From: Firmicutes bacterium ADurb.Bin182 | GTDB lineage: Bacteria; Bacillota; Clostridia; Christensenellales; CAG-138 | Length of the DNA stretch: 64,000 bases | Direction: 5' to 3' | Assembly: GCA_002070205.1 (NCBI GenBank) | Contig: MWCU01000054.1 | Location: forward strand, 11,968-75,967 | Part shown: positions 3,718 to 58,164 of the stretch, piece after piece | Layout: each line of letters starts with the position of its first letter | Position numbering within the stretch: position 1 is the stretch's first letter | The notes under the pieces: model-generated | Seen by the model: only the letters and a program-made list of their open reading frames with translations | The model's database searches: none | Told to the model about the DNA's origin: nothing | Translations under genes and position numbers: made by a program

Positions 3718-3767
3718 ACGCAACCGGTCTATCGCCGGCTGCTGCGCAAATAAAGGGGAGTTAAAAA

Positions 3768-7416: not shown

Positions 7417-7439
7417 ACGGTAAAGGCAGTGTTTATAAA

Positions 7440-7474
7440 GGGGCAAGCGGGAACGACCCGCCTGCCCTCTTTTA
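7440..7474 (+). terminator. Rho-independent terminator after the surface protein gene
   Basis: GGGCAAGCGGG-AACGA-CCCGCCTGCCC (one mismatch), followed by TCTTTT. Confidence 0.65.
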
Positions 7475-7533
7475 AAGCTTTAGCGATATTAACCAACGGC
7501 TATGCCGGTGAGAATAAAGATCTTTAGATACAA

Positions 7534-7603
7534 GCAAAACCTCCTTTTGCTAAAATAAGTGCAGGTCTGCTAACCGCACAAAGGAAGCAAAAGGAGGTTT
7601 TGT
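7534..7603 (+). promoter_or_regulatory. stem-loop sequestering the tnpA ribosome-binding site
   Basis: GCAAAACCTCCTTTTGC (7534-7550) pairs with GCAAAAGGAGGTTTTG (7587-7602), which contains the AAGGAGG RBS. Confidence 0.7.
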
Positions 7604-7606
7604 CGA

Positions 7607-8077: not shown

Positions 8078-8350
8078 AAAAGGCCGCTTTAGCGGCGGCC
8101 TGTAGAAAAAATGCAGTTTGCAGATTATTCGATGCGTCTTGAGACGCAGCAAGCAGTATGCCCTTTTAGGGCTTGTGCATACCACGCGTTTAACGCGTGG
8201 TTTTGATTCAGGTGAAATAAAAAAACTCAAAATATTGCTCTTAGTCTGTTTTTCTGCTTGCAGCAACAACATTAAAGGAAGAGTCAATATCGGCATGAAC
8301 CACTAAGATGAACGGCTGATTCAATATTGGTAATTGCCGAAAGCCCGCAA

Positions 8351-9578: not shown

Positions 9579-9795
9579 CGGAGTCGAGTCTTATTGCTGG
9601 ATGTTTACGGTTTCAGATATTATTAATTCACTGATAAGGGCCGGCATGCGCATCGACTTCTTTAACGAATTTACGGAGAATTTTTATGATGTCGGCAATA
9701 TGAAAAAGTCTGATAAAGAAGGTTTACTGATATACGAATACAACCGTGATAAATATCCGATGTCCTTCAGCCTGAAGGCTTCGGTCAACGCTTAA
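8995..9795 (+). CDS. class I SAM-dependent methyltransferase, full length
   Basis: 266 aa with a Rossmann SAM-binding motif. This is the intact counterpart of 3768-4427. Confidence 0.8.
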   Translation: MKEIESNKHSWSQISEDHYYAFKARFKEGTQFFNYYIKRELGDITGKDIIHLQCNTGADTILLAQMGAEHVTGVDLVPENIYYAKKLASDLNVTNVDFFESDIMTLSQKYNKKHDMVFTSEGALVWLPDMEVWAKTVRSLLNDTGYLYVFDSHPFFLMLDEEKLDKQIYDIKYPYFKKTPDFDTTIGGYASERKGGVESYCWMFTVSDIINSLIRAGMRIDFFNEFTENFYDVGNMKKSDKEGLLIYEYNRDKYPMSFSLKASVNA

Positions 9796-18414: not shown

Positions 18415-18458
18415 CGCGCCGCCGTGATGCAGCTTATCGGCAATCCGGCAGCGCGCAA
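18415..18458 (-). repeat. 44-bp copy of the 23312-23355 terminator hairpin, overlapping the adhesin stop codon
   Basis: CGCGCCGCCGTGATGCAGCTTATCGGCAA..CGGCAGCGCGCAA, 42/44 identical to the upstream copy. Confidence 0.9.
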
Positions 18459-21400: not shown

Positions 21401-23029
21401 CCACTCAATAAATCGATAGCCCGCATTAGGAATCGCAGTGGAGCTTACAGATGATACGCCTGAATGCAGAACAGAGCTTGTTAAGTCCACCGTGCCCATG
21501 CTGTTATTGCCGGATTCAAACGTAGCGGTATAAGTTTTTTCAAAGTTTGCCCTAAATGTTAAGGGTATCCAGGGACCTCCTTCCGGTTTTGGCGGCACAA
21601 ATTTCGCATCTTGACCAACTTCAACGCCGTTATGGGTCCAATTAACAAAGCGGTAGCCGTCGTTCGCTGTCGCGGTTGAACCTTGCGCTATGCCCGTAAC
21701 CGGGGCAAGGCTTTCGCTGCTTCGATCGACCGAGCCGCCGACACCTGCTTCGTATGTGATGGTTACATCGGCATTTTCTCTGAAGTTTGCGGTATAGGTG
21801 ACAGGTACCCAGACCACTCCCGGCTTTGTCGGCACGAACTTTGCATCCGTGCTGACTTCAACGCCATCACAAGTCCAGTTAACAAAGCTGTAACCGATGT
21901 TCGCCGTTGCGGTTGAGCCTTGCGCCACGCCTATCTTAGGGTTAAGCCACTCGCTGCTTGGGTTTATCGAACCGCCTGCTGTTGCTTCGTAATTGATCGG
22001 TATATGCTTAAGTTCTTTGAATAGCGCTGTATAAGTTTTTGTTTCTGTTATCGTATCCGGCAATTCGGGATCCCATTTATCGAACTCGTAGCCGTCTGAC
22101 GGGTGTATGGACGGCATTGGTTTTATTGCCGTATTCCATGGTGTTCCGGTTATTATATTGGAAAAGATTTTTGTACCGAGTAATGACCCATGTTCGCCCG
22201 CCTGAAGCGTAACGGTAAAGCGTTCCTCGGGATTCTCTTTCCATCTTGCGGTATAGGTCTTATCTTGATTTATTATGCCTGTATCGCCGGGCAGCGCAGG
22301 ATCCCACCTGTCAAATAAATATCCGGGTTTGCGGTTCGTTTCTGGTACCGTTATGCCGGCGTTTCTCCACTCTGTGCCGCTGGTGACTCTGAACTCCGCT
22401 GTCCCCGAAAGCGTGCCCTTATTCGGATCTTCGGTCACGAAATTTATCGTGTACTTGGGGGAATAGTAAACTCTTAACTGTAAGTGGTCGAGCCATATAT
22501 CCTTACTTCCTCCCGTGCATTTCAGCCAGACGCGTAATGGATCATTTACCAGCCCGGGCGTCCACATGTCATAGCCCCACTTTTCGGTGGGACCGCCCAG
22601 TATTATTGTCGACCATGAAGTACTGCTGACAGCCCCTGTGTCTTTAAAATAAGTAAAATTGCCTACCGGCGCATGATTACTATCACGCAGAGATACTTCC
22701 AGCGAGCGGTATTCATTTTCATTTCCATTTTCGTTGCATCGAACCCTCAAGTGCACTTCAATCCCATCTATCCTGCAGTCTTCGGGCACAATGGGTGCGC
22801 TATGTTCTGTGAAAGTATATTCTACTATTGAATCTTCAATGTAAAACCTGGCATATTGTCCGTCAGATGAATAGGCATTTTCCGGGTCACTTACCAACTC
22901 AGGGTTGCTAAAGCGTATATAGGACTGTGCGCTTAACAGCCCGGTATCATCCGCCAGCGCAAGCGGCCTTGCCATGACGAATATGAAAGAAAAAATCAAG
23001 ACCAACGCGAGAATTCTTCTGCACGACAT
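18434..23029 (-). CDS. giant sortase-anchored adhesin with about 16 Listeria-Bacteroides-type (GYxFxxW) repeat domains
   Basis: Start ATG 23029 behind GGGGAGG. Signal peptide ...RPLALA. Repeated ~75-80 aa modules ending ..YTA.F. C-terminus has PPKTG, a hydrophobic helix and KKRKK. Confidence 0.85.
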   Translation of the reverse strand: MSCRRILALVLIFSFIFVMARPLALADDTGLLSAQSYIRFSNPELVSDPENAYSSDGQYARFYIEDSIVEYTFTEHSAPIVPEDCRIDGIEVHLRVRCNENGNENEYRSLEVSLRDSNHAPVGNFTYFKDTGAVSSTSWSTIILGGPTEKWGYDMWTPGLVNDPLRVWLKCTGGSKDIWLDHLQLRVYYSPKYTINFVTEDPNKGTLSGTAEFRVTSGTEWRNAGITVPETNRKPGYLFDRWDPALPGDTGIINQDKTYTARWKENPEERFTVTLQAGEHGSLLGTKIFSNIITGTPWNTAIKPMPSIHPSDGYEFDKWDPELPDTITETKTYTALFKELKHIPINYEATAGGSINPSSEWLNPKIGVAQGSTATANIGYSFVNWTCDGVEVSTDAKFVPTKPGVVWVPVTYTANFRENADVTITYEAGVGGSVDRSSESLAPVTGIAQGSTATANDGYRFVNWTHNGVEVGQDAKFVPPKPEGGPWIPLTFRANFEKTYTATFESGNNSMGTVDLTSSVLHSGVSSVSSTAIPNAGYRFIEWRNGENPVSNNAVLTVFQPAGGWSDVTYTAYFEPVPYTIAFNSGDSSMGTVSPASASVDLNTVSVSSTATPNTGYRFVEWRDSNGFVSSNAVLTVPKPAGGWSNAAYTAYFEPVPHTITFNSGDSAMGTVSPASASVDLNTVSVSSAATPNTGYRFVEWRDSNDFVSSNAVLTVSKPAGGWSDAAYTAYFEKDPAMWHKVLFETDGGNGHLNGKTQYEILNGTKWKDAGITVPTPVPDNGYAANWSPELPDSNSESMITASITYKVSFIKDPGQWHTVTFEAGDHGYFAAGTKTEFTDILTGTAWEDAIDTEPEPVANAGYEFDKWDPVLPETITETETYTATFREKPDVTITYTAGAGGSVDPSSESLAPATGIAQGSKATADVGYSFVNWTCDGVEVSTDAKFVPTKPGAVWMPVTYIANFIENANVTITYTAGVGGSIDRSSESLAPATGIAQGSTATASDGYRFVNWTCDGVEVSTDANFVPTKPGAVWVPVTYAANFEKTYTVTFRADNDSMGTVDLTSAVLHSGVSSVSSKAIPKPGYRFVEWRKGTDTVTSEETLTVNRPDEGWSENLAYTAYFTELDKVTISYISADNEMGSVSRNSEELNPETGKAQGSEAEAMPGYEFDYWTRDDDSMHITENPIIPGQKDGKYETAVYTAYFKIKESDWHTVTFIAGEHGSFTGGETQVQFSGILTGSAWDESVTTPTPIADEDYKFSGWSAEFPEKIEGDLTYTAIFTELGTFTVTADAVLEDDSEGGGKITFDPQGGTYQEETSVTLTAVPGRGYTFLHWLVPGNTGSSDVPVNENDPDALLNGAAYAALSEDSSWVFYSEVNPITVMVDSNMSFKAVFKKSEQSEPTVNRYTVSYHTNGGTGAVPVDMNRYYTGDSITLASGAGLSKPGFIFLGWELRDGTRVESPLIMGNSDIILFAAWGPATLPPPKTGSGESAAGWAAIFTGFALTVFVIVKKRKKPDNIINIKTCALPDCR
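20833..21545 (-). repeat. three tandem ~237-bp intragenic repeats (two nearly identical)
   Basis: 20833-21069 and 21070-21306 differ at only a few positions. 21307-21545 is more diverged. Confidence 0.85.
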
Positions 23030-23304
23030 ATTTTCTTGCCTCCCCGGAATATTGAATTGCAACTGTTTTCCCTTTTATTATGTATCCCAAAAGTCCGTGC
23101 CGCTGAAGGCACGTTCCTAAAAAACCTGCTCAGATGCTGTTTACCCGTCAGGGTAAGCAACAGTTCCCTATTAAAGAGTAGCATAAAAAAAAGGCTGCGG
23201 CATCGTACCTAAGTACGATATTGCGACAAAATTCTTATATAAGGGAAGACTGATTAAGGCTTTCCTAAATAACCGGTCGACTTGATGCCGCCGGAGTCGG
23301 CAGA

Positions 23305-24678: not shown

Positions 24679-24718
24679 ATTATGAGTTTTAATATAGGTA
24701 TAAGTATATATTATTTCA

Positions 24719-24853
24719 AGAGCTTCGCTCGCAGAGCGGCAGCTTAGCTGCCGTAGAGAACGCTTACGCGCGTCGAGAGGAAGCTTACGCTTCCGCAGAG
24801 TCGTAGAGAGCAAGCTGCGCTTGCGTATAGAATAAGCGCAAAGCATTTTATTC
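24719..24853 (+). repeat. tandem array of 21-25 bp AGAG-prefixed mini-hairpins
   Basis: Six to seven units. The arms differ but remain complementary: CGGCAGC/GCTGCCG, GGAAGC/GCTTCC, GCAAGC/GCTTGC, GAGC/GCTC. Confidence 0.8.
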
Positions 24854-24858
24854 AGACT

Positions 24859-25071
24859 GTCAAAAAACCCCTCCTAGGGATTATCAAGGGATCGGAACCC
24901 CTTGATTTACATTCCGGCTTCGGTGGCATGTACGTTGAAACGGATGAAATTCGTAAGAATTTCGTACATTGCACGCTTTGACGCTCGAAAATCTCTGATT
25001 TTAGTTCGTCAAAAATCTTGTTTTTGACTACGTGTAAATCTCGAAAAAGTCTGTACAGCCTTTTTCGACAC
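24859..25071 (+). repeat. structured dispersed element, copy A
   Basis: Shares ordered conserved boxes with 52337-52527 and with the reverse complement of 43589-43882. Confidence 0.85.
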
Positions 25072-25182
25072 GCTGCATAAACGCAAAGCGTTTATTCTCT
25101 ACTATTGCTCAACAATTGCTTTACGGCTGTGATTGCGCCATAGCGTAACTCGCAGTCTTTGCGGCTTTGCAGCTCCGGCGTA

Positions 25183-29274: not shown

Positions 29275-31278
29275 TTGAACAAAAAACTAAAAACGCCTTT
29301 AATATATCTTATTATTATCGTCGCAATCATAATAATGGCTACGGGTCTTGACCCTCAGCGGAAAACTCCGGAGGAATGGGATTATAAGCATTTCCTGAAC
29401 GCCGTAAGGGAAGATAAAGTCGCGGCCGCGGAACTCACCGTGATAGAACTGAGGGGGCTTCTGAAGGGCAGTGAGATAAAAAGGGAGGACTTCCCGAAAT
29501 CCTCTGATTTTGTGCTTACTGTTCCGAGCGAAGAAACGTTCAAGGCCGATATGGCGGTCATATATGCCGAAAAGCTCGGCAAATCACCCGATTTGGTTAC
29601 AGCTACCGATTATGCGTTCGACTATGCCAGCAAACAGGCGCCCAAAGCCGGTTTGTTCGAGGTGCTGCTCCCTTATCTTCTGATATTCGGCGCAATAGGA
29701 ATATTCTATTATTTCATGATGCAGCAGCAGGGCGGCGGCAACAAGGTCATGAGCTTCGGAAAGTCGCGCGCGCGCACGAATCTCGATTCCGCGAATAAGG
29801 TCACGTTCGATAATGTGGCGGGCGCAGACGAGGAAAAGGAAGAGCTTAAAGAAGTCGTTGAGTTTATGCGCAATCCCAAGCGATTTTCGCAGATGGGCGC
29901 AAGGATCCCCAAGGGCGTGCTGCTCGTTGGCCCTCCGGGAACCGGGAAAACTCTGCTTGCAAAGGCTGCCGCGGGAGAAGCGGATGTTCCGTTTTACTCC
30001 ATATCCGGTTCCGACTTTGTTGAAATGTTCGTAGGCGTCGGAGCATCGCGCGTACGCGACCTTTTTAACACGGTGAAGAAAACCGCTCCGGCAGTCGTCT
30101 TCATCGATGAAATAGACGCCGTCGGCCGTCAGCGCGGGGCGGGCCTCGGGGGTGGGCATGATGAGCGCGAGCAGACGCTTAACCAGCTTCTCGTCGAAAT
30201 GGACGGTTTCGCGCCCAATGAAGGAATAATCGTGATTGCGGCCACAAACAGGCCGGATATCCTTGACCCGGCTCTTTTAAGGCCGGGCAGGTTTGACAGG
30301 CAGATCACCGTCAACTACCCCGATGTCAAAGGGCGGGAAGACATTTTGAAGGTGCATGCGAAAAACAAACCTTTTGAGGACGACGTGGATCTTTCCGTTC
30401 TTGCGAAGCGTACCCCGGGTTTCACGGGCGCGGACCTTGAAAACGTGCTGAACGAGGCTGCCATACTCGCGGCAAGGTTCCACAAAAACAAAATCGGCAT
30501 GAACGAGCTTGAGGAGGCGATTACGCGCGTAGTCGTCGGTCCCGAGAAAAAGAGCCGCGTCATTACCGCGGAAGATAAAAAAATTACGGCGTATCATGAA
30601 TCGGGCCACGCTATCGTTGCAATGAAGCTGCCCGGGTGCGACCCCGTTCACGAGGTGAGCATAATCCCGCGCGGCCTTGCGGGCGGTTATACGATGACCC
30701 TTCCCAAGGAAGACATGAGGCATATGACGCGCGGCAAGATACTCGACGAGATAGCGATGCTTTTGGGCGGACGCGTAGCGGAGACTCTTGCGCTTGGAGA
30801 TATCAGCACGGGCGCTTATAACGATTTGCAGCGCGCGAGCGATCTTGCGAGGAAAATGGTAGTCGAGTACGGCATGAGCGAAGAAATAGGGCCGGTGTTT
30901 CTCGGCGGAAAAGAAGAAGTCTTTATCGCGAAGGACTGGGGTCATCAGCGTAATTTCTCCGAGGAGATCGCGGCGAAGGTGGACGCCGAGATAAAGCGCA
31001 TATTGGAAGAGCAGTTTAAAAGGGCGCGGGATGTCATCAACGCCGATATGGAAGCTCTCGGCCGTACCGCCGCGGCGCTCATTGAGTATGAGCGGGTTAC
31101 CGGAGAGGAATTCGAGGCCATCTATGAGGGCAGGGATGTAGAGATTTCGGCTTTCGTAACAAAACCGGCAGAGAAGACCGAAAAGGAAAACGAAACGCAA
31201 ACGCCGCCACCTGAACCGGAACAGCAAACCCCGGAAGTAATCGAAAAAGCGGAAGACGATTCAAATAAAGGCGATTAG
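29275..31278 (+). CDS. ftsH: ATP-dependent zinc metalloprotease FtsH
   Basis: Two N-terminal TM helices, Walker [12 protein letters not shown] region, HESGHA zinc site. TTG start behind GGGAGG. Confidence 0.95.
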
Positions 31279-31413
31279 GGGATTATTAAGGGGCCGAGCG
31301 GAAATTTTCGATTGCAGGCAAAACATGTACAATTTGAAGGGGTCCATCCGGACTTCTTCGATACTCAAACCCGGCCGTGCCGGGTTATTTTACGAACAGG
31401 AGCTGTCGGCCGC

Positions 31414-32373: not shown

Positions 32374-33396
32374 TTGAATATGGTTCCGGGTATCATCAAA
32401 ATATTCGCGGGAAGAACGGGCAGGGTTTTCGCCTCGAAAATGTGCGATTATCTCGGTGCAAAGCTGGGTGATTCCGAGACGATCAGGTTCTCCGAAGGGA
32501 ATATATTCGTAAAGGTAAATGAATCCATAAGGGATAAGGATGTATATATCGTTCAGCCCATAGGCCGCGAACCCAACGATGAATTTGTGGAACTTCTTTT
32601 CTGGATAGACGCATTCAAGCGCGCAAGCGCAAATTCCGTTACCGCCATCATCCCGTATTTCAGCTACGCAAAAGGAGATAAAAAGGACGAACCCCGCGTT
32701 TCCATACGCGCGAGAGTATGTGCCGAATGCATTGAGCTTGCGGGAGCGGACCGCATTTTGACAATGGACCTTCATAGTGCTCAGGTCCAGGGATTTTTCA
32801 AAAAACCGGTCGATCATCTGTACGCGAGTTCCATTCTGTGCGAATATGCAAGAAGAATAGGCATTGTGGATGAGGACCTCGTGGTCGTATCGCCGGACGC
32901 CGGATTCGCGAAACGCGCGAGGCAGTTTGCAAATGAGCTTGGCTGCCCGGTCGCTATCGGCGACAAAACGCGCTCCGATCATGACGAAAAAGCAAAAGTG
33001 CTTGAGATCATCGGCGACGTAAAAGGCAAGAATTGTCTTGTCGTCGACGACTTTACGATTTCAGGCGGAACTTTGGTCGATTTGGCTCTCGGGCTCAAGG
33101 ATAAGGGAGCGAAAAGGATATTTGCTTTCCTGTCGCATATAGTTTTAGGCGAAGCCGGAGTCAAAAAAATCGAAGAGAGTCCGATTGAGCTGCTGGTTTC
33201 CACCGATACCGTGCAATGCCCCGCCGTGAAAGGATCGGGCAAGATCAAAATCGTTTCCGCCGCTCCCATGTTTGCGGAAGCCGTCAGGATCATCCACGAC
33301 CGCGAACCCATGAGCAAGATGTTCACTGAGTCCGCGTCAAGGCGGATGTTCGATATGAGCTTCGCGTCGCAGCTGAGCATAAAGGATATTAGATAG
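32374..33396 (+). CDS. prs: ribose-phosphate pyrophosphokinase
   Basis: DLHSAQVQGFF and PRPP-loop VVDDFTISGGTL motifs. The start could be TTG 32374 or ATG 32380. Confidence 0.9.
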   Translation: MNMVPGIIKIFAGRTGRVFASKMCDYLGAKLGDSETIRFSEGNIFVKVNESIRDKDVYIVQPIGREPNDEFVELLFWIDAFKRASANSVTAIIPYFSYAKGDKKDEPRVSIRARVCAECIELAGADRILTMDLHSAQVQGFFKKPVDHLYASSILCEYARRIGIVDEDLVVVSPDAGFAKRARQFANELGCPVAIGDKTRSDHDEKAKVLEIIGDVKGKNCLVVDDFTISGGTLVDLALGLKDKGAKRIFAFLSHIVLGEAGVKKIEESPIELLVSTDTVQCPAVKGSGKIKIVSAAPMFAEAVRIIHDREPMSKMFTESASRRMFDMSFASQLSIKDIR

Positions 33397-33575
33397 TTTT
33401 CAGTATATAGTAACAAGTATTCAGTTGAATGAAAAAAATCTGCCTCCCGGCAGATTTTTTTTGAACTAATAACTTTATCAGTTTTCAGTATATAGTAATA
33501 AGTATTCAGTTTATGAAAAAAAATCTGCGGCAGCAGATTTTTCATTAAATTATAACTTTATCAGTTTTGAGTATT
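33397..33575 (+). repeat. two and a bit tandem ~84-bp modules (AT-rich box + AAATCTGCC..GGCAGATTT hairpin)
   Basis: Units 33397-33481 and 33482-33564. A partial third unit is cut off at 33575. Confidence 0.85.
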
Positions 33576-33702
33576 CGGACGAAATGGGCGGGCGATTCGT
33601 GAATCGCCCCTACATATAGGAATAACATGTCAGTACAATACAACATATTGTAGGGAACGACCCCCATGTCGTTCCGAATTTGTATTTCCGGGCAACCCTT
33701 TC
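33576..33702 (+). repeat. GGGCGATTC-hairpin element, copy 1
   Basis: Collinear with 60172-60349 except for one loop. Confidence 0.85.
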
Positions 33703-33741
33703 CTGAACTTATAACTCATTACTTATTATTGATAACTGTTC

Positions 33742-33766
33742 AAATCTGCCTCCCGGCAGATTTTTC
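33742..33766. terminator. AAATCTGCC-TCCC-GGCAGATTT hairpin (bidirectional terminator-like)
   Basis: Perfect 9-bp stem with A/T runs on both sides. It lies between the convergent prs and murC genes. Confidence 0.6.
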
Positions 33767-33799
33767 ATGAACTTATAACTGAATACTTATTACTGAGAA

Positions 33800-35164
33800 C
33801 TATAAAAGCTTTTTAGTCTGCTTATACACGTCTCCGCTGCCGAGGGTCAAAACGAGGTCGCCGGGTTTTGCGGTCGTTTTAAGATAATCGCGCACGTCCT
33901 CGAATGTCGGAGTATAGCGGGCGTCGATCCCCGCGTTTACAAATGCGTTTACCATGTCCCCGGCATGAACGGTGCCGTCGTCCTTCTCGCGCCCCGGATA
34001 AATGTCTACCGTCAGCACTTCATCCGCGCCGGCAAGGCATGAGGGGTCCTTTAAGAACAGAGTTTTTGCCCGCGTATAGGAATTGCATTGAAGGACCGCT
34101 ATCAGCCTGTTGCGCTTCACCCTATTCGCGGTCTCAATTATCGCACGGATCTCGCCGGGATGATGGGCAAAGTCGTGGTAAAGCATTGCGCCCTCGGGCG
34201 TTTTGCCGTAAAACTCAAACCTGCGCTTGGCAAGCCTGTAGCGAGATAATGCCTCGGCGGCCTTTTTTATGTCCGATTTCAGCTCGAGCGCGACCGCCAT
34301 CGCGGCGAGCGAATTCATAACGTTATGCGTTCCCGGAACGTGAAGCGTTATCCGCGCGAGTTTTTCACCCTTGTAAGTAAAGTCATAGGACGCTGAGCCC
34401 GAATCGTCGAATTCGATGTTCTGCGGGCGGCAGTCTCCGCCGTGCATTCCGTAAGTCAGCTTACGTCCCTTGAATTCCCCGAGCAGCTTTATTACGTGCT
34501 CGTCGTCCGTGCAGCCTATAAACAAACCGTCTTCCGGAAGCTTATTGACGAATTTTCTAAACGCGTCCGTGATGGCGTCGATGTCCTTGAAATAGTCGAG
34601 ATGATCGTCATCGATGTTATGAATAAGAGCTATGGTCGGCCGCAGCGTTAAAAAACTTTCCACATATTCGCAGGCTTCGGTAATAAAGAGGTCTTTTGAG
34701 CCGACGCGCGTCCCTCCGCCTAAAAACTCTTCGTATCCGCCTACGTGTACAGTGGCATCCGGTCCTCCCGTCAAACTGATAAGAGCGAGCATGGATGTTA
34801 TCGTGGTTTTGCCGTGGCAGCCGGCAATGCCGACAACGCTTTTGTATCCTTCGGATAATTGTCCGAGAGCGACGGAACGCTCAAGCTCCGGGATGCCGGC
34901 TTCGCGCGCGGCGCGGCGCTCCGGGTTATCCGGCTTGATTGCCGCCGAATAGATTATTAAATCGCTGCTGCCTATGTTTTCAGGCCTGTGTCCGATAAAT
35001 ACGGGAATGCCGAGCTCAATGAGCCTGTCGGTAAAAGGGGAATCGGTAACGTCTGAACCCTGGACCTTCAAGCCCCGATCGGATAGCAGCTGGGCAAGCC
35101 CGTTCATGGAGCACCCCCCGATTCCGATCAGGTGAACTTGTTTATGATTATTGATATGCGTCAT
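33800..35164 (-). CDS. murC: UDP-N-acetylmuramate--L-alanine ligase
   Basis: GIGGCSMNGLA and GCHGKTTITSM motifs, with a Mur ligase C-terminal domain. Confidence 0.95.
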   Translation of the reverse strand: MTHINNHKQVHLIGIGGCSMNGLAQLLSDRGLKVQGSDVTDSPFTDRLIELGIPVFIGHRPENIGSSDLIIYSAAIKPDNPERRAAREAGIPELERSVALGQLSEGYKSVVGIAGCHGKTTITSMLALISLTGGPDATVHVGGYEEFLGGGTRVGSKDLFITEACEYVESFLTLRPTIALIHNIDDDHLDYFKDIDAITDAFRKFVNKLPEDGLFIGCTDDEHVIKLLGEFKGRKLTYGMHGGDCRPQNIEFDDSGSASYDFTYKGEKLARITLHVPGTHNVMNSLAAMAVALELKSDIKKAAEALSRYRLAKRRFEFYGKTPEGAMLYHDFAHHPGEIRAIIETANRVKRNRLIAVLQCNSYTRAKTLFLKDPSCLAGADEVLTVDIYPGREKDDGTVHAGDMVNAFVNAGIDARYTPTFEDVRDYLKTTAKPGDLVLTLGSGDVYKQTKKLL

Positions 35165-37010: not shown

Positions 37011-38013
37011 ACTAATCACATGGGAAAAGACCGGCTCCGATGATCCGATCTATTACCTATACGACGCGAACGGGAACCTCTGGGGTCTGAAATACGATGG
37101 CAGCACGTACTTCTATATCCGAAACGCCCAAAACGATATCACCGGAATAGTTGATTCGACCGGCGCTGTTGTGGTAACGTATAGCTATGATGCGTGGGGC
37201 AAGCTGCTTGACGTATCCGGCACTAAGGCAGCTACATTAGGGCAGGATAATCCGTTCCGTTACAGAGGGTATTATTACGATACGGAGACGGGACTGTATT
37301 ATCTGCAGAGCAGGTATTATAACCCGGAGTGGTGCAGGTTTATTAATGCGGATGTCTACGTTTCCACCGGGCAGGGGTTGTTGGCAAGCAATATGTTTGC
37401 GTATTGCGCGAATAATCCGGTATTGCTAAAAGATCCAAGCGGGTTTGCCTACGTTATAGGTGATGATGAACATGGTAGGCCAATACTGTATTTTCCCCCA
37501 AAATCTTCACCTTCTAAAACAAATTCTGAAAGAGTAATTGATACAGTAAAGAATTCATCAACATATAAGAAAAATTCATCGGATATTTCTACTATTGTTC
37601 AAAGAAGTGGTGGAACGATAATAGATGATTCAAGAATCGAAATAAACAACATAAGAACATCATTTGTATCAGACAAAATTGCATATAACACATATATTAA
37701 AAACTGCATAGCTGAGACAGGTAATATAAACAGAGGAAAGAGTATATTGGCTGCAGCATTAGGGATGGTACCAGGTATGGGTGAAGTAGCTACTGTAATT
37801 GATTATGTAACAGGTTTTGACACTGAAATTAACGGAGATTATTATGATACATTAGGAGGTAACTATGTATTCGCGGATGTTACTTATATAGTAGATTTTG
37901 ATTTTCGAGGAATCGGTGAAGGAAAGAAGATCACATATTATGGTAGTGTTGTTGTTGGTCCGTCAATTGATAATCCCTTAAATAGTGTTTCTTGGTATGG
38001 TTGGAAAGATTGA
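37009..38013 (+). CDS. orphan RHS-core tail + DPSGF junction + ~190-aa unknown C-terminal toxin domain (no ATG/RBS)
   Basis: The frame opens at 37009 right after a stop. Reads ...YDAWGKLL..DNPFRYRGYYYDTETGLYYLQSRYYNPEWCRFINADVY...NNPVLLKDPSGF. The only listed start is GTG 37171. Confidence 0.75.
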   Translation, partial: VLITWEKTGSDDPIYYLYDANGNLWGLKYDGSTYFYIRNAQNDITGIVDSTGAVVVTYSYDAWGKLLDVSGTKAATLGQDNPFRYRGYYYDTETGLYYLQSRYYNPEWCRFINADVYVSTGQGLLASNMFAYCANNPVLLKDPSGFAYVIGDDEHGRPILYFPPKSSPSKTNSERVIDTVKNSSTYKKNSSDISTIVQRSGGTIIDDSRIEINNIRTSFVSDKIAYNTYIKNCIAETGNINRGKSILAAALGMVPGMGEVATVIDYVTGFDTEINGDYYDTLGGNYVFADVTYIVDFDFRGIGEGKKITYYGSVVVGPSIDNPLNSVSWYGWKD

Positions 38014-38033
38014 TAGAATTGGAGATTTTTATA

Positions 38034-38984
38034 ATGGAAACATTGAAAAGAACTCTAGTATGCGCATTGCTGATTATTATAATGATTTTGACTGGTTGCA
38101 GACCAAACAATAAATCGGATTACAATAGAAATTCTTTAGTTGCCGCATTGAATTTAGACTGCCAAGTAAGTATTAACAATGACGGTGCGGTTAACGTGAT
38201 AGATAAAACTCGAGGTAGTGGCTTTGATTTCAGCGACTGGCAGGACATAAAGAGCGTTTCAGCAAGCGAAGTTCAATTAGGTGCAATAAAAGTAGATGGT
38301 TCGGTGGTTATGACAGGCTATCCTGGTTTTGTTATGGACTTGACCGATTGGAAGGATATTGATATGTTGGAATTTACCGATTTTGCAGCATATGGACTGA
38401 AAGAAGACGGAACAATAATTTTTCAAAACGTGGATGATTCTCAGGTAGATGAAACTGTCAATGAAACGGTGAAGGTATGGAGAGATATCAGTTACATTGA
38501 TACTGGATTTCAAGCTATTGTTGGTGTTACGAAAAACGGTAAGGTCGTTGCATCGGTTCCTCAATTTCCGGATTTAGAAAAGAGAGTGAATCAATGGGAA
38601 GATATTAAAATGGTTAGCATATCTAATAACTTCTTTGGAAGAGCCAGGATAGTCGCAGTAAAAAACAACGGAGAAATCGTTGAAGAAAGGTATGAAGAAT
38701 CTGAAATCATTAAATACGATTTAGAGTCTTATGAAGATCTAAAAGGTGCTGTGAAAATCTGTGCAGGAGATTATTTTACCGCTGGATTAATGCCTGATGG
38801 GACATTAAAAGTAAGATGTGGCCTTGATTATGATAAGCGGCTTATGTCAGAAGTAGAAGGAGAATTTTTAGATCTAAGAAATCTAGATAATACCAAGGAC
38901 GTGGCAGACATAAACAGCTTTGAGGATATTCTCGTTGTTTTGAAAAATGATGGTACAATTTTGGTTGGTGGTTTTGAAGATTAG
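38034..38984 (+). CDS. lipoprotein with beta-propeller-like DG(T/S)hh repeats; putative immunity protein 1
   Basis: GGAGA RBS. Lipobox MILTGC. Six repeats centred on DGSVVMTG / DGTIIFQ / NGKVVAS / NGEIVEE / DGTLKVR / DGTILVGG. AT-rich. Confidence 0.6.
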   Translation: METLKRTLVCALLIIIMILTGCRPNNKSDYNRNSLVAALNLDCQVSINNDGAVNVIDKTRGSGFDFSDWQDIKSVSASEVQLGAIKVDGSVVMTGYPGFVMDLTDWKDIDMLEFTDFAAYGLKEDGTIIFQNVDDSQVDETVNETVKVWRDISYIDTGFQAIVGVTKNGKVVASVPQFPDLEKRVNQWEDIKMVSISNNFFGRARIVAVKNNGEIVEERYEESEIIKYDLESYEDLKGAVKICAGDYFTAGLMPDGTLKVRCGLDYDKRLMSEVEGEFLDLRNLDNTKDVADINSFEDILVVLKNDGTILVGGFED

Positions 38985-39025
38985 ACTCTAAGCGTGATTG
39001 TGACATACGATATACGATTGTTACA

Positions 39026-39631
39026 ATGAACTACAACGGCAGCGTGTACTTCTATGTTCGAAACGCGCAGAACGACATCGTAAGCATAGTTGATTCCACC
39101 GGCACTGTTGTGGTAACGTATAGCTATGATGCGTGGGGCAAGCTGTTTGACGTGTCCGGTGCTAAGGCAACTACATTAGGCAAAGACAATCCGTTCCGTT
39201 ACAGAGGGTATTACTTTGATTCGGAAACTGGATTGTATTATCTGCAGAGCAGGTATTATAACCCGGAATGGGGAAGGTTTATCAATGCGGATGTCTACGT
39301 TTCCACGGGACAAGGGTTATTGGCGAGCAATATGTTTGCGTATTGCGCTAATAATCCGGTTATGTTTTCCGATGAACATGGTTATCGTTATGCTATTTCT
39401 GCTGGTATAGGAGGACTTAATGCTGAAGATAGAGCTCGTAAAGAAATGAAGGATCTTCAGTCGCTCAAGGGGATAACTGGTTATGTAAACGATCAAAGAA
39501 AATTACCGGGTCTACAGCTTGGTTCAAAGGGCAATTTACCTAAACATGGGTGTGGGGTTGTTGCTGTACATAACGCCATTGTTTTAACTGGGAAAGAGTC
39601 TAATTTATATGATGTAATATATGTATTTTAA
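39026..39631 (+). CDS. orphan RHS-core tail + DEHGY junction + N-terminal part of a Cys-containing toxin domain
   Basis: Same core tail as 37009-37446. After the junction only 83 aa remain, containing Q...KHGCGVVAVHNAI. There is no SD before ATG 39026. Confidence 0.7.
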   Translation: MNYNGSVYFYVRNAQNDIVSIVDSTGTVVVTYSYDAWGKLFDVSGAKATTLGKDNPFRYRGYYFDSETGLYYLQSRYYNPEWGRFINADVYVSTGQGLLASNMFAYCANNPVMFSDEHGYRYAISAGIGGLNAEDRARKEMKDLQSLKGITGYVNDQRKLPGLQLGSKGNLPKHGCGVVAVHNAIVLTGKESNLYDVIYVF

Positions 39632-39944
39632 TGATGATTCAAATATAATTAAAAGAACTTTTGTAAATCCGATAGCGATTATGAAATATCTAAATAATCA
39701 AGGTTTAAATACATCGATTAATTGGTTCGATAATAAAGTATTAGATTCTGATGCATGTATTGTTATTTATAAATGGGAAATAAATGATAAATGGGATTTA
39801 CATTACCAGACTATAGCAAAAGTAAATTTCGGCGATGCAAATACTTATATAGCATTTAGTAAAACTGGTTTTTATACAAATCCCCAAGATTATATAAAGG
39901 AAAACGCTATAACAGAAATGTATGGGATTATTGGTATAAATTGA
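39621..39944 (+). CDS. 107-aa protein: either a small immunity protein or the frameshifted C-terminal half of toxin 2
   Basis: Overlaps the previous ORF by 11 nt in another frame. Contains WDLHYQTIAKV, which resembles a papain-fold His motif. Confidence 0.5.
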   Translation: MYFNDDSNIIKRTFVNPIAIMKYLNNQGLNTSINWFDNKVLDSDACIVIYKWEINDKWDLHYQTIAKVNFGDANTYIAFSKTGFYTNPQDYIKENAITEMYGIIGIN

Positions 39945-39957
39945 GGTGAATAGGATT

Positions 39958-41205
39958 ATGGCGCGTAAAATATTTAAATATTTGCTAATACTCATGATAT
40001 TGAATATAGTCGTGGGATGTACCGGTTGTGTACATAGTTATAAAAATTTTGAAGGAAGCCTTACTCGAAAAGTAATGCTAAAACAGAATGTTTACAGCAG
40101 TACCGGACAATTTGCCGCTTTCAATAAAGATCGAATATACTATATTTCACAAGAAGCAGATAATAATGGGATATACAGTATGAAGACTGATGGATCGGAT
40201 ATAAAGTTTGAGTTGGAAACTACAAAAGTCACGAGAATACAAGTTACAGATAACGAAATATATTATGTTGGTGTAAAAGAAGAAAGAGAGAATAAAAACA
40301 GGCTCTATGGACTTTATGAATTCGATAGATCCAATCCTGGTATAAAAAGTGTTAATTATACAGATATTCAAAGCGACGCAACAACAGAAGATGCATTTGT
40401 TTTTGCAAGTGGTACTATCGCAGTTATGGATGAAACAGGACTTTTTAGTACATTGCAACCCTCCACCGGAATTTTTGTTGTATCAAATAATACCAATTAT
40501 AATTTTGTCAAAAGGCCTGCTAAAATATCTGAAGACTTCTTTATTGCGGAATTTCAAGATTTCATTATCGTTAGCAGGTCATATCCTAATGCACATAAAA
40601 GTAAAAATATGATAAATGATTTCGCTAGCAGTCTTGTTGATGTACATAGCGGTGAATACGTAATGGATAATCTTTTTGAAGATGAGTTACGAGTTTTTTA
40701 TTCGGATGAAAAACAAATCATTAGTTCCCTAAATAATGTTTTAATTTTCATAGACCGCGATACACTGACAGAAAACAGAACGATAACTATTGGTAAAACT
40801 AATGAGAATCAGGAAGTAGCATATATTTTTAAAGATGGTGATATTTTATATGTAGTCATGAGAAACGATAATGATAGATATAACAGCAGCCTTTTCAGCG
40901 TGGATATATCTTCCGCGGAAGTAAAAAAGATAACATCGCTTAATGCTGGTAAATTAGTATTAAACATTGATAAAGGCAAGATTTATTGGGTAAAAGGTGC
41001 GAATATTTATTGTAATCTAGTTAATTCGCAGCGGATTGGGGACCGAGTAAGTAAAATTACAATCGATGAAACTATTACAGATAGTGATAATAGCATCGAA
41101 ATCGCCGGTAATTGGCTATTTATTTATAAAAACTCGGACATTAATGAACTTTGTTACAAAATTAACTTGGCGAATCTTCAAGTAATAAAGATTAATCGCC
41201 AATAG
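39958..41205 (+). CDS. DUF5050-like beta-propeller lipoprotein; putative immunity protein 2
   Basis: GAGGTG RBS. Lipobox VVGCTGC. Repeated ..IYY....D.NGIY.M..DGSD.. motifs. Confidence 0.6.
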   Translation: MARKIFKYLLILMILNIVVGCTGCVHSYKNFEGSLTRKVMLKQNVYSSTGQFAAFNKDRIYYISQEADNNGIYSMKTDGSDIKFELETTKVTRIQVTDNEIYYVGVKEERENKNRLYGLYEFDRSNPGIKSVNYTDIQSDATTEDAFVFASGTIAVMDETGLFSTLQPSTGIFVVSNNTNYNFVKRPAKISEDFFIAEFQDFIIVSRSYPNAHKSKNMINDFASSLVDVHSGEYVMDNLFEDELRVFYSDEKQIISSLNNVLIFIDRDTLTENRTITIGKTNENQEVAYIFKDGDILYVVMRNDNDRYNSSLFSVDISSAEVKKITSLNAGKLVLNIDKGKIYWVKGANIYCNLVNSQRIGDRVSKITIDETITDSDNSIEIAGNWLFIYKNSDINELCYKINLANLQVIKINRQ

Positions 41206-41237
41206 TATAAATAGGATAATATCGTTACTAATATATA

Positions 41238-41714
41238 AAACTGCGACAGACGCAGCCATATCGACTACGGAGTACAATATCATCGGTGACCTAATAACGT
41301 GGGAGAAGACCGGCTCCGATGATCCGATCTATTACCTGTACGACGCAAACGGGAATCTTTGGGGACTGAACTATGATGGCGCTGTGTACTTCTATGTTCG
41401 AAACATGCAGAACGATATCATCGGAATAGTTGATTCCGCCGGCGTTGTTGTGGTCGTATCTTTACGACGCATGGGGAAATCTTAGTATTACGGGCACCTT
41501 GGCAACTTCATTAGGGCAGGATAATCCGTTCCGATACAGAGGGTATTATTACGATACGGAGACGGGGCTGTATTATCTGCAGAGCCGGTACTATAACCCC
41601 GAGTGGTACAGGTTTATAAATGCGGATGTGTTCGTTTCCACAGGACAGGGATTGTTAGGTTATCGAGGCCGCGTTCGCTGTTGTGACGCCGATCTCCGCA
41701 CCTGCATCAGTTAA
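41238..41714 (+). pseudogene. third RHS-core tail, frameshifted and truncated
   Basis: Reads ...WEKTGSDDPIYYLYDANG..., then has a deletion where the other copies read VVTYSYDAWG. Homology ends after GQGLLG with no junction motif and no toxin domain. Confidence 0.8.
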
Positions 41715-41838: not shown

Positions 41839-41919
41839 AAAAAATCTGTTGCCGCAGATTTAAACAGTTATCAGTAATAAGTTATAAGTCAAAGAAAAAT
41901 CTGCCGGGCGGCAGATTTT
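41839..41919. repeat. two AAATCTG..CAGATTT hairpins flanking the right-hand 17-mer
   Basis: Hairpins at 41839-41860 and 41895-41919, with the 17-mer at 41866-41882. The second hairpin probably terminates the minus-strand 5'-nucleotidase gene. Confidence 0.7.
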
Positions 41920-43489: not shown

Positions 43490-43588
43490 ATGTGACCTCC
43501 TCTTGCTTGATTGACCTGTGAGATATCTTTACCTAATTGTATTATAAGCAGGTTCCCATAATGCGGCAATCGGTATGATTGTCATTAA

Positions 43589-43882
43589 GTGTCGAAGAAG
43601 TCTTGACAGACTTCTTCGAGTTTTACACGTTTTGCCTAAAATCGAAGATTTCCGGGCGGCCTGAGCGAATATTTTCGCGGGGAGCTGCAAAATACGATTG
43701 TCTGAAACATAGATTTCAGACTACCTTGTGGATTTCATCCGTTTCACCGCATAATCGCTGATGACGGAACGTATCAGTCGATCATGCCGCTCATGCAAAA
43801 GCAGAGCTTTTGCTGGGCCGGAATGAAAATCAAGGGGCCATGCGGAAATCGAAGATTTCTGCTCAGCCCCTTAATAATCCCC
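43589..43882 (-). repeat. structured dispersed element, copy C (expanded hairpins)
   Basis: The reverse complement carries the same box order as copies A and B. It lies between two divergent promoters. Confidence 0.8.
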
Positions 43883-43985
43883 AAATGAATGATAGGCCTA
43901 AACCGGTTACATGTGATATAATATAAGAATTATGAATAATATCGGCTTGCGCATGTTCGCCCGTCAAATCAAGAAAAGGAGTTTC

Positions 43986-50555: not shown

Positions 50556-52136
50556 ATGAAAAATTACATTGAAAACCTCGGGATCCGTCACCCCAAAGCG
50601 GTTTATCGCAACCTTACCCCGGCAAGGCTCACTGAAGCGGCGCTGCTCAGAGGCGAGGGAAAGCTGTCCGAGACCGGCGCGCTGGTCGTAGAGACGGGGA
50701 AATATACCGGGCGCTCTCCCAATGACCGCTTCGTGGTGGATTATCCCTCCATTCACGGCGAGATCGACTGGGGAAAAGTCAATGTACCGATCTCTCCCGA
50801 AAAGTCGGACGCGATTTTCAAAAAGATAGCCGGTTATCTTCAGGGCAAAGAAATTTTCGTGTTTGACGGATTTGCGGGAGCAAATGAAAAATACGCGCTT
50901 TCCGTTCGCGTTATAAACGAGCTGGCAAGCCAGAATTTATTCATCCACCAGCTCCTCATCCGCCCGACTGAGGAACAGCTGAAAAACTTCGAGCCCGGTT
51001 TCCTAATAATAGCGGCGCCCGGATTCAAATGCGACCCGGAAGCGGACGGCGTCAATTCGGAAGCCGCGATAATCGTGGATTTTGAAAAGAAGATGGTTTT
51101 GATAGCTGGCAGCCAGTACTCCGGCGAAATAAAAAAGAGCGTGTTTTCTGTGATGAACTACATCCTGCCTCACAAAAACGTGCTCCCGATGCACTGCTCC
51201 GCAAATATCGGATATAAAGGCGATACCGCTCTGTTTTTCGGATTATCGGGCACGGGGAAAACGACTCTTTCCGCCGACCCCGACCGCAAGCTTATAGGCG
51301 ACGACGAGCATGGGTGGAGCGAGGACGGAATATTCAATTTCGAAGGCGGATGCTACGCCAAGTGCATAAATCTTTCAAAAGAGCATGAACCCCAGATTTG
51401 GAATGCGATAAAATTCGGAGCGCTCGTTGAAAACGTCGTGATGGACGAAACGACCCGCAGGCTGGATTTTGACGACGGCGGCCTCACCGAGAATACGCGC
51501 ACGGGATATCCCGTGGATTTTATTCCGAACTGCGCCATCCCGGGCGTGGGCGGACATCCGAAAACCGTCATTTTTCTTACCGCGGATGCGTTCGGTGTGC
51601 TTCCCCCGGTATCAAAGCTTGATAAAAACATGGCGATGTATCATTTCATATCGGGATATACGAGCAAGCTCGCGGGCACCGAGCGCGGAATAGTCGAGCC
51701 GCAGACGACGTTTTCGACCTGCTTCGGAGCGCCGTTCCTGCCGCTTCATCCGTCCGTATACGCCGAAATGCTCGGCAAAAAGATCGATGAGCACGATTCT
51801 AATGTTTATCTCATAAATACCGGATGGTCCGGCGGCCCCTACGGAGTGGGCAAGCGCATGAGCATAAAGCATACGCGCGCAATGGTCACGGCCGCTCTCA
51901 ACGGCGATCTTGAAAAGGGCGAATTCGTTTTGGACCCCGTATTCAACGTTTTGGTCCCGACGGCGTGCCCCGGCGTTCCCTCCGATGTTCTAAGCCCGAG
52001 GAAGGTATGGGCGGACAAGGTAGCCTATGACAGGCAGGCGAAAGACCTGGCGGCACGCTTCGTAAAGAACTTCAAGCAGTACACGGGCATGAAGCAGGAG
52101 ATAATAGACGCGGGACCTAAAGTAAACATTGATTAA
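50556..52136 (+). CDS. pckA: phosphoenolpyruvate carboxykinase (ATP)
   Basis: [19 protein letters not shown] and GGCYAK motifs. Confidence 0.95.
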
Positions 52137-52244: not shown

Positions 52245-52331
52245 TGCCGACAACCCTCCCATTAATCAGTGTTTACTAAAGCGTAATTGATTGAAACACG
52301 TTCAAGAGGCAATGCAAACATGCATTGCCTC
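52245..52331 (+). repeat. ~87-bp direct repeat R1 (ends in the GGCAATGCA hairpin), copy 1
   Basis: TGCCGACAACCCTCCC..TAATCAGTG...AAGCGTAATT...AGAGGCAATGCAAACATGCATTGCCTC. A diverged copy lies at 54189-54273. Confidence 0.8.
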
Positions 52332-52336
52332 AGATC

Positions 52337-52527
52337 GTCAAAAAACCCTCATGGGGATTATCAAGGGGTCGAAATCCCTTGATTTCCATTCCGGCTTCGG
52401 CGGCATGTACGTCGAAACGGATGAAATCCGTATGGATTTCGTACTTTGCATGCTTTGCCGCCGGAAATCTCTGATTTTAGGCAAAGCATGAAAATCTCGA
52501 AAAAGTCTGCAATGACTTTTTCGACAC
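52337..52527 (+). repeat. structured dispersed element, copy B
   Basis: See copies A and C. Confidence 0.85.
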
Positions 52528-52532
52528 TCTCG

Positions 52533-52554
52533 GGCAATGCAAACCTGCATTGCC
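52533..52554 (+). repeat. second copy of the GGCAATGCA..TGCATTGCC hairpin
   Basis: Differs from 52309-52330 by one loop base. Confidence 0.85.
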
Positions 52555-52665
52555 TTTTATGATAGTGCCGGTTAAGTTAATCGCCTTTTCTATGATTCAG
52601 GAGCATTTTACGTTTGCAAACAGATCGAAATGTATGTTTGTTTAAAATCGTTTGTTATCATATAT

Positions 52666-52731: not shown

Positions 52732-53334
52732 ATGACGTCTATGGATATTATGGATAACCTGTCAACCGTCTCCCGCCAAAACAACGGGTTGATCCTCACT
52801 AAAGCAGCTGAAGCAAACGGAGTTTCGAGAGCAATGTTATCTAAGCTTTGCAAGAAAGGAACGCTGTTTCGTATCGCTGCGGGTCAGTATGTGTTTGCTT
52901 CCGAGCTCGGCGATGAGATGCTGTCGTTAAGCCGGCGTTCGGGACTGATCGTTTTTTCTCATGAGAGTGCTTTGTTCCTGAACGGCATTTCGGAGAGGAC
53001 ACCATTCGAGCATACGGTCACGATTCCAAGCTCGAAAAAACTTGCAGCGTCCATAAGCGAACACTGCAAGGTATATTATGTCAAAGATAAACTGGCACAC
53101 TTGGGAAAAACAACATTAAAGACTACCCTGGGTAATCCGGTTCCGGCATATGACCCGGAACGAACTATCTTAGATATCATCCGGAGTCGGAGAAGAATTG
53201 CTGAAGAGACCTTACTCTCATCGCTGAAACTGTACGCAGCAAGCCCAAAAAAAAATCTGTTGAATCTACGCGCTTACGCCGAAGCCTTTGGAATGACAGA
53301 AAAGGTCAGAAGGTATATGGAGGTGTTATTATGA
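52732..53334 (+). CDS. type IV TA system AbiEi-family antitoxin/transcriptional regulator
   Basis: N-terminal wHTH (GLILTKAAEANGVSRAMLSKLCKKGTLFRIAAGQYVF) followed by ..FSHESALFLNG. ATG 52732 sits 6 nt after GGTGGAG. Confidence 0.8.
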   Translation: MTSMDIMDNLSTVSRQNNGLILTKAAEANGVSRAMLSKLCKKGTLFRIAAGQYVFASELGDEMLSLSRRSGLIVFSHESALFLNGISERTPFEHTVTIPSSKKLAASISEHCKVYYVKDKLAHLGKTTLKTTLGNPVPAYDPERTILDIIRSRRRIAEETLLSSLKLYAASPKKNLLNLRAYAEAFGMTEKVRRYMEVLL

Positions 53335-54158
53335 GCGCGAACGCTATGAGCCTGAAAGCGAAGATACGCAGCCTTGCCAAGCAGAAAAGTATCCCCGCAC
53401 AAGTAATTCTGCAAAACTATATGTTCGAGCGATTTCTCGTCCGGCTTTCTGCATCAGTTTATAAAGATAAATTTATACTCAAGGGTGGAATGCTGGTGGC
53501 TGCGATTGTCGGTCTTGAAAACCGCGCGACAATGGATTTAGATACTACGATAAAAGACTTGCCGTTGACGCCTGAAAGCATCAAGACAGCTTTGCAGGAG
53601 ATAATCGGTATTGACATGGATGATGAAGTGACTTTTACCATCGGAAACATTTTGCACATCCGGGATAACGATGTTTATGGCGGATATCGCGTAATGATAA
53701 GCGTGCGATACGAAACGATTCTCACGCCGCTATCGATCGATGTATCCACTGGCGATGTCATCACGCCTCGCGCGGTAAATTATATCTTCAGAGGAATATT
53801 CGACGATGCTCTGACCTTTGATCTTTGGGCGTATAACATTGAAACCGTTATGGCGGAAAAGGTGGAAACTATACTGAGCCGCAGTGTATTCAACACCCGA
53901 CCGAGAGATTTTTACGATGTATATATCCTTTGTACAACGCAGCAGTTCGACAAGCAGGTGTTCCGGGATGCATTTTGTGCAACTGCAGTTCGCCGCGGAA
54001 CTGCTGAACAGATTAGAGATATTCCGTCTTCGCTTAAAACCCTTACAGCAAGCAATGAATTGCGAAATCTATGGGACGGGTTCAGGAGGCAATTTGCTTA
54101 CGCTGAAGATATAACCTATGACATGATAATCGGTAAATTGACAGAACTGCTAAATTGA
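53331..54158 (+). CDS. AbiEii/AbiGii-family nucleotidyltransferase toxin (DUF1814)
   Basis: 4-nt overlap with abiEi. FILKGGMLVA...RATMDLDT motif. Confidence 0.85.
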   Translation: MSANAMSLKAKIRSLAKQKSIPAQVILQNYMFERFLVRLSASVYKDKFILKGGMLVAAIVGLENRATMDLDTTIKDLPLTPESIKTALQEIIGIDMDDEVTFTIGNILHIRDNDVYGGYRVMISVRYETILTPLSIDVSTGDVITPRAVNYIFRGIFDDALTFDLWAYNIETVMAEKVETILSRSVFNTRPRDFYDVYILCTTQQFDKQVFRDAFCATAVRRGTAEQIRDIPSSLKTLTASNELRNLWDGFRRQFAYAEDITYDMIIGKLTELLN

Positions 54159-54188: not shown

Positions 54189-54273
54189 TGCCGACGACCC
54201 TCCCTATAATCAGTGCTTGCTGAAGCGTAATTATTAATGCAAGATAAGAGGCAATGCAAACCGCATTGCCTCT
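54189..54273 (+). repeat. direct repeat R1, copy 2 (with third hairpin copy)
   Basis: See 52245-52331. Confidence 0.8.
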
Positions 54274-54309
54274 TATAATATTTAAATGCGGCAAATGCTT
54301 GACTCGGTT

Positions 54310-57895: not shown

Positions 57896-58164
57896 GCCGC
57901 GCACCCGTCCTTTGACAAAGCGCCTCCGGGCGGTATGCAGGCAGGCGGCTCCTTCCGGGCGTCCCCGCGGCACACCGCCTTTTCCGCTTAATGCTGCTTC
58001 CGTCAGGACCTGACATGCTTCACGGACGGCGATTGCACGGGACCCGGATATCAACGCTCCTTGCCTGCGCCGGACCCCACAGGCACCCGCCGGGGGACGG
58101 GACTTCAGCCCTGCTGTAGCGGATTGCAGGTACAGGGCACCGCTGTCTCCCCGCTTAGCGCGGC
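57896..58164 (-). ncRNA. ffs: signal recognition particle RNA, long (Alu-domain-containing) Firmicutes type
   Basis: Minus strand contains the domain IV core GTCAGGTCCTGACGGAAGCAGCATTAAG and an Alu-like 5' part GGTGCCCTGTACCTGCAATCCGCTACAGCAGGGCTGAA. The termini GCCGCGC/GCGCGGC pair. Confidence 0.85.

Follow-up and report, generated by a model that had tools for sequence, protein, structure and literature searches.

The stretch of DNA analysed here, 64,000 nucleotides of a contig assigned to Firmicutes bacterium ADurb.Bin182 and called the window throughout, harbours two copies of a short repeat, A and B, which are each bracketed by two copies of a hairpin of about 20 bp. Does such a hairpin belong to the element or to the site into which the element was inserted, and what kind of element and enzyme would leave a whole hairpin on either side of an insertion? 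A previous sequence-only reading of the locus had favoured an origin in the insertion site, but knew of no transposition mechanism that would account for it and named a RAYT or other Y1 HUH transposase as a candidate mobiliser.

Copies of the element

The repeat family is non-coding, its full-length members measuring 200-224 bp, and three full-length copies (A, B and E) were identified. Element B is 202 bp long (52331-52532, plus strand), starts with CAGATCGTCAAAAAA, ends with ...TTTTTCGACACTCTC(G) and scored 235 bits with the covariance model. Element A is 224 bp long (24853-25076, plus strand; 206 bits), carries an additional 21-nt hairpin at 25008-25028 and is oriented antisense to both neighbouring genes. 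The cores of A and B are approximately 87% identical.

Copy E is located on the minus strand at 2466-2665 of the 3-kb contig L009, which is labelled Firmicutes bacterium ADurb.Bin300; it starts with CAGGCTGTCAAAAAA and ends with GACGCTG. This was the single extra copy obtained when a genome collection, with one genome per species, was scanned with the pattern GAAACGGATGAAATN{40,70}GATTTTAG, the remaining nine matches being due to chance. The E locus was also present in assembly GCA_022706985.1 (contig L055), and because the same assembly contains the window's own loci, E was treated as a third insertion in the organism of the window and not as a separate lineage. L009 (MWBL01000117.1) is binned as 'ADurb.Bin300', and its locus recurs in L055 (JAKJBM010000027.1), a contig of the 'ADurb.Bin182'-like MAG in which the loci of the window are found; this suggests either that the two public MAGs were binned inconsistently or that they represent very close relatives.

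Profile and covariance-model searches, which covered the window, L055 and every other locus, detected two further copies. One of them, copy C (43588-43887, minus strand), contains the same core as the other copies and four extra hairpins sited in its loops. Copy D (31277-31366, plus strand) is of the C type with everything between two internal GAAATCTTCGATT repeats deleted, and lies between the stop codon and the terminator of ftsH; this terminator hairpin (AACCCGGCCGTGCCGGGTT, 31368-31386, plus strand, then ATTTTAC) adjoins the right end of the copy. Both C and D are devoid of the first ~20 nt of the element, the left terminal repeat included. The total is five copies in about 84 kb (window and L055), four of which are found at the 3′ end of a gene beside a terminator. 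No open reading frame is conserved in the family, each frame being stopped in at least one copy. Short-read assemblies are interrupted within A, B and E, which is to be expected where a repeat is multi-copy.

Elsewhere, a scan of metagenome contigs with AAATCTNNGATTTTAGN{15,45}AAGTCTG gave 27 chance matches and no real copy, viral contigs yielded one chance match and no real copy, and plasmids and phages had no match to the element. The relatives' loci with an approximately 80% identical PEPCK showed neither synteny nor copies of the element, and a protein database searched with the concatenated six-frame translation of the elements returned no match. Exact-protein look-ups revealed no presence/absence polymorphism between strains at A, B or C; all assemblies carry the elements.

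Element ends and flanking hairpins

Elements A, B and E start with CAG, and the right end is CTG (CTC in B). The terminal inverted repeats are approximately 15 bp long and imperfect (about 11-12 of 16 positions), with the consensus CAGnnnGTCrAAAAA. They are located at 52331-52345 (plus strand) and 52517-52531 (minus strand) in B, and at 24853-24867 (CAGACTGTCAAAAAA, plus strand) and 25061-25075 (CAGCGTGTCGAAAAA on the minus strand) in A. At the right end there is a perfect terminal hairpin of 10-11 bp (52497-52524 in B), and the right repeat is its 3′ arm. The pattern CAGNNNGTCRAARAA has seven occurrences in the window, where 1.1 would be expected, and the ends of A and B account for four of them.

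The 35-nt stretches flanking the CAG...CTG ends were aligned with each other, with 2000 shuffles as control. The flanks of B (52308-52330 and 52533-52555) were identical in 22 of 23 positions, and those of A (24832-24852 and 25077-25096) in 17 of 20 with a 1-nt indel; the observed score was reached by none of the 2000 shuffles in either case, which confirms that duplicated hairpins bracket both elements. The coordinates given in the sequence-only reading were exact for three of the four hairpins, and the left hairpin of B was correctly found but is displaced by one base (52308-52329, not 52309-52330). In A and B the left repeat stops exactly at the first base of the element and the right repeat begins 0-1 nt past its last base. 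The left duplication of B (GGCAATGCAAACATGCATTGCCT, plus strand) consists of a 9-bp stem, a 4-nt loop and a T; the right one (GGCAATGCAAACCTGCATTGCCT, plus strand) precedes a TTTAT and was classed as terminator-like by the scan. The left duplication of A (ATAAGCGCAAAGCATTTTATT, plus strand) is decayed; the right one reads ATAAACGCAAAGCGTTTATT (plus strand).

A survey of the further copies, which had been proposed as a check, revealed the same pattern at E, where the flanks GCCGGCCGTTAATAACGGCCGGT and GCCGACCGTTAATAACGGCCGGT are identical in 22 of 23 positions and form a third, unrelated hairpin. The 35-nt flanks of C and D contained no repeat, in agreement with the earlier remark that C lacks flanking duplicates.

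The hairpins flanking A, B and E are mutually unrelated and have stems of 8-10 bp, the palindromes being GGCAATGCA-AACA-TGCATTGCC at B and ATAAACGC-AAA-GCGTTTAT at A. The duplications are long and variable (20 bp in A, 23 bp in B and 23 bp in E) and are centred on the dyad of the palindrome within one base. The palindrome itself is longer than the duplication, by 2-4 bp on each side. When the outer flanks of each pair were joined, they gave an extended palindrome between an A-tract and a T-tract, which is an intrinsic terminator. The sites rejoined in this manner read CAAGAGGCAATGCAAACATGCATTGCCTTTTATG for B and AAAAGCCGGCCGTTAATAACGGCCGGTTTTG for E; the reconstructed empty sites are AAGAGGCAATGCAAACATGCATTGCCTTTTATG for B, TAGAATAAACGCAAAGCGTTTATTCTC for A and, for E, the same sequence as rejoined. 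The repeats of 20-23 bp and the rebuilt intrinsic terminators support the proposal that the elements were inserted into terminator-like hairpins with a duplication of about 20 bp.

Empty sites

Since no strain-level polymorphism was seen, empty sites were taken from a paralogue and from orthologues in other species. The paralogous empty site, R2 (54189-54288, plus strand), contains one hairpin (54244-54276) and no element. It is 86% identical to the 90 bp preceding and including the left hairpin of B; this occupied paralogue, R1 (52245-52330, plus strand), resumes at 52556-52566 past the element. The orthologous empty sites are located on three contigs of related species (L059, L060 and L061), which encode a DUF4064 protein 71-72% identical to that of the gene beside E. 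Directly after this gene they have a single hairpin with the arms CCGGCCG...CGGCCGG as at E, then T-tracts, and no element. None of the empty sites carries two hairpins, as had been predicted for a duplication of the target.

The reading of the flanking hairpins as target-site duplications is supported because two kinds of empty site carry one hairpin. The three unrelated hairpins, the rebuilt terminators and the single-hairpin empty sites together show that the duplicated hairpin derives from the insertion site and not from the element. Being short, non-coding and multi-copy, with terminal inverted repeats and, in three of the five copies, target-site duplications, the family has the characteristics of a MITE.

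The R1 and R2 repeats are direct repeats of approximately 90 bp (52245-52330 with 52556-52566; 54189-54288) which bracket not only B but also an AbiEi/AbiEii toxin-antitoxin pair (52732-54158). This arrangement is reminiscent of restriction-modification cassettes, for which an 'insertion with long target duplication' has been described (PMC2853133). Both R1 and R2 also contain a TCAGTGyTTrCT sequence complementary to a stretch 125-150 nt upstream (52121-52136 with 52262-52277, and 54046-54058 with 54210-54222). One of the upstream stretches comprises the last codons of pckA and the other is inside abiEii, and the differences between R1 and R2 are compensatory.

Likeness to IS1630 and a proposed mechanism

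The insertion sequence IS1630, an IS30 family member of Mycoplasma fermentans, inserts into variable inverted repeats and duplicates them, the resulting direct repeats being described as 'long and variable' at 19-26 bp. The published duplications for strain M64 are of 16, 23, 25 and 26 bp, and the description of ISMhom-1 of M. hominis agrees with that of IS1630. The duplicated targets of IS1630 reportedly derive, in the work of Calcutt, Lavrrar and Wise, from rho-independent terminators of neighbouring genes. A transposition behaviour matching the hairpin duplications is thus on record in the literature, although the sequence-only reading knew of no mechanism that would account for them.

The behaviour of A, B and E matches that of IS1630 on every point examined. 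In both, a variable inverted-repeat target is duplicated, over 19-26 bp in IS1630 and 20-23 bp in the present element. The repeats of the element are long and variable, its palindromes differ in sequence from site to site and its empty sites (R2 and L059-L061) have one hairpin. The two differ in that the element is approximately 200 bp long with terminal repeats of about 15 bp against the 27 bp of IS1630, in that the host of IS1630 is a mollicute and that of the element an uncultured clostridial-type Firmicute from a digester, and in the conserved internal multi-hairpin fold of the element. At about 200 bp and without an open reading frame, the element must be non-autonomous. The behaviour shared with IS1630 makes a DDE transposase like that of IS1630 the most probable mobiliser. 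From the three informative copies, all in one organism, we consider it likely that A, B and E represent a MITE-like DNA transposon, approximately 200 bp long and non-autonomous, which targets terminator palindromes and is mobilised in trans by such an enzyme. Within the window and the 20-kb L055 (~84 kb of the genome), neither a DDE transposase nor a transposase with matching ends was found.

The insertion may be depicted as follows. A transposase encoded elsewhere in the genome would bind the CAG...CTG ends and capture the inverted repeat of an intrinsic terminator, which offers a symmetric target. One element end would then be joined to each strand, some 10-12 nt to the left and to the right of the dyad, and gap repair would copy the 20-23 bp between the joins, leaving a complete hairpin on each side. 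The upstream hairpin copy would lose the T-tract and the downstream copy would keep it. The element would thereby become part of the 3′ UTR of the neighbouring gene without abolishing termination, because the downstream hairpin copy keeps the T-tract. Transcription from pckA (at B) or from the DUF4064 gene (at E) is predicted to read across the element and to terminate at the second hairpin, since the gene-proximal copy has lost its T-tract. We are not aware of any account of how a transposase measures a stagger of 19-26 bp about a palindrome of arbitrary sequence.

The same target-duplicating transposition might be performed by another enzyme with a long stagger, such as one of the IS1202 family, an IS1634/IS1549-type relative of IS4 or a Cas1-type integrase (casposase). 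The length of the duplications, 20-23 bp, would suit such enzymes: IS1202-family elements with long duplications (15-17 or 24-29 bp) exist, those of the IS1634/IS1549 type are long and variable, and casposase and Cas1-Cas2 also duplicate a defined target segment, as in the duplication of the CRISPR repeat. For Cas1-Cas2 and casposons the likeness is that two opposite-strand joins bordering a defined, often palindromic segment duplicate the whole of it; the difference lies in a fixed repeat or target sequence and another enzyme, and no cas1 gene is present in the window. Casposon duplications are 14-15 bp and occur at specific sequences. None of these enzymes is known to pick arbitrary terminator palindromes and duplicate them symmetrically, as IS1630 does, and no gene for any of them was found in the window. 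We regard this alternative as unlikely, though it would leave the origin of the duplications as described.

Other systems that make use of hairpins resemble the element in part. Bacterial class C group II introns home beside intrinsic-terminator stem-loops, but they are retroelements that leave no target duplication, and the element has neither intron domains nor a reverse transcriptase. IS1397 and ISKpn1 insert in the loop and duplicate 3-4 bp, and they target one repeat family and not arbitrary terminators, whereas the element duplicates 20-23 bp at unrelated terminators. With other REP-targeting insertion sequences they have extragenic palindromes as targets (PMC1525189), as the element does.

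The duplication of hairpins on insertion is a rare phenomenon with a published precedent (IS1630, 1999). New here is a small non-autonomous element with this type of insertion in a clostridial-type Firmicute, together with an unusually conserved internal fold. The occurrence of a 200-bp element of this kind in a Firmicute unrelated to the mollicutes suggests that the hairpin-duplicating mechanism is wider than the mollicutes, and the element would offer a compact substrate for biochemistry. We know of very few elements that duplicate a whole terminator hairpin on insertion, essentially the IS1630-type insertion sequences in mollicutes. Insertion within a 3′ UTR with the downstream terminator kept would allow a repeat to spread with little harm and would provide a route to new 3′ UTRs. 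In genome annotation, paired identical terminators approximately 200 bp apart may be readable as the signature of such an element.

The internal fold and alternative readings

The fold of the 200-nt core is considerably more stable than that of shuffled sequences (z = -6.6 for B and -8.8 for C). Among three sequences, seven compensatory pairs were found on the plus strand and nine on the minus strand. The consensus energy was -66.9 kcal/mol for the plus strand and -57.7 kcal/mol for the minus strand, a modest asymmetry. Copies A, B, C and E all contain the motifs GAAACGGATGAAAT and AAATCTnnGATTTTAG unchanged, and all four insertions in C are hairpins that fall within loops. The internal multi-hairpin fold is thus conserved beyond the need of a simple MITE. 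Conservation of the fold by compensatory changes is not predicted by a plain MITE model, and neither is the existence of C and D without left terminal repeat or duplication.

A role for the folded strand is possible, in transposition or for the host. The conserved core could function as a single-stranded structure, of RNA or DNA, with a part in the structure-directed capture of terminator hairpins or cruciforms, or it could be a 3′-UTR module recruited by the host; in both cases the mobiliser would not be of the IS30 type. We hold this to be rather improbable; if true, the transposition system would be a previously undescribed one. An RNA guide in the style of bridge RNA or omega-RNA was also considered for B and was rejected, the matches between core and hairpin being at positions that are unchanged in copies with other hairpins.

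The fold could alternatively belong to genes for a structured non-coding RNA, forming a family without mobility at the DNA level. The matching hairpins would then be an upstream terminator and the terminator of the RNA itself, with local duplication or gene conversion accounting for their likeness. The z-scores, the seven compensatory pairs among three sequences, the placing of the extra hairpins of C in loops and the lower energy of the plus strand are all consistent with such a family. This reading leaves unexplained, however, the base-exact abutment of the duplications to CAG...CTG at three loci with unrelated hairpins, as well as the single hairpin that stands alone at the empty paralogue and orthologues. 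Furthermore, the element had no match in Rfam 15 (the best E-value for B was 0.3, to a microRNA model), no conserved promoter was seen for it, and A is antisense to both of its neighbours. A non-mobile RNA family is accordingly improbable.

The Y1 HUH transposases named by the sequence-only reading would move the element as single-stranded DNA, in the manner of a REPIN (by a RAYT) or a PATE (by an IS200/IS605 TnpA). The element is similarly short, hairpin-rich, intergenic and multi-copy, its fold is slightly better on one strand, and the window encodes a single transposase, a Y1 enzyme of the IS200 type (7607-8077). REPIN/RAYT systems and IS200/IS605-derived PATEs differ, however, in duplicating no target sequence and in having internal hairpins that the Y1 enzyme recognises. 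Y1 transposition leaves no target duplication. The element has duplications and shares no ends with the IS200 copy, whose own end hairpins are unrelated to it; the copy (7420-8230) gave no match to the element profile and its transposase is on record at one locus. A RAYT or Y1 mobiliser is not supported because the IS200 end hairpins are unrelated to the element and Y1 chemistry leaves no duplication, and we judge it highly improbable. Most improbable is site-specific recombination, by which folded hairpins, like an integron attC or Xer site, would receive the element as a cassette: this would suit the chain of hairpin, element, hairpin, AbiE cassette and hairpin around B, but the hairpins, perfect palindromes of 19-22 nt, have no GTTRRRY cores, are wholly different between loci, lack attC or dif features and are duplicated whole and not split, and no integrase is encoded nearby.

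Other features of the window

The IS200-type element (7420-8230) encodes a 156-aa Y1 transposase (PF01797, E = 1e-39) and has the usual 5′ hairpin over the ribosome-binding site. It is located between two diverged PNPOx-methyltransferase gene pairs (3130-4427 and 8462-9795), which share a 300-nt repeat that is 92% identical.

Directly left of the left duplication of A, the region 24717-24830 contains about five short G+C-rich hairpins with YAGAG between them at a spacing of 21-22 nt. These could be the footprints of earlier insertions or of excision; neither the periodicity nor the fold of this array was significant.

A second repeat family was detected at 33395-33801 and 41842-41919, in which terminator hairpins AAATCTGCC...GGCAGATTT are embedded in AT-rich units of approximately 85 bp (AGTTTTCAGTATATAGTAA...). 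It comprises five hairpin copies, some of them in tandem.

An open reading frame of 1542 aa on the minus strand (18434-23062) contains 237-bp tandem repeats in several blocks and probably encodes a repetitive surface protein. Three copies of a 300-nt repeat (37088-41661) run across open reading frames with weak RCC1, RHS-repeat and DUF5050 matches (37171-41205) and extend approximately 450 bp past the last of them; these frames look like fragmented toxin genes of the RHS/YD type. The only Rfam match in the window was the bacterial large SRP RNA at 57897-58163 on the minus strand (193 bits).
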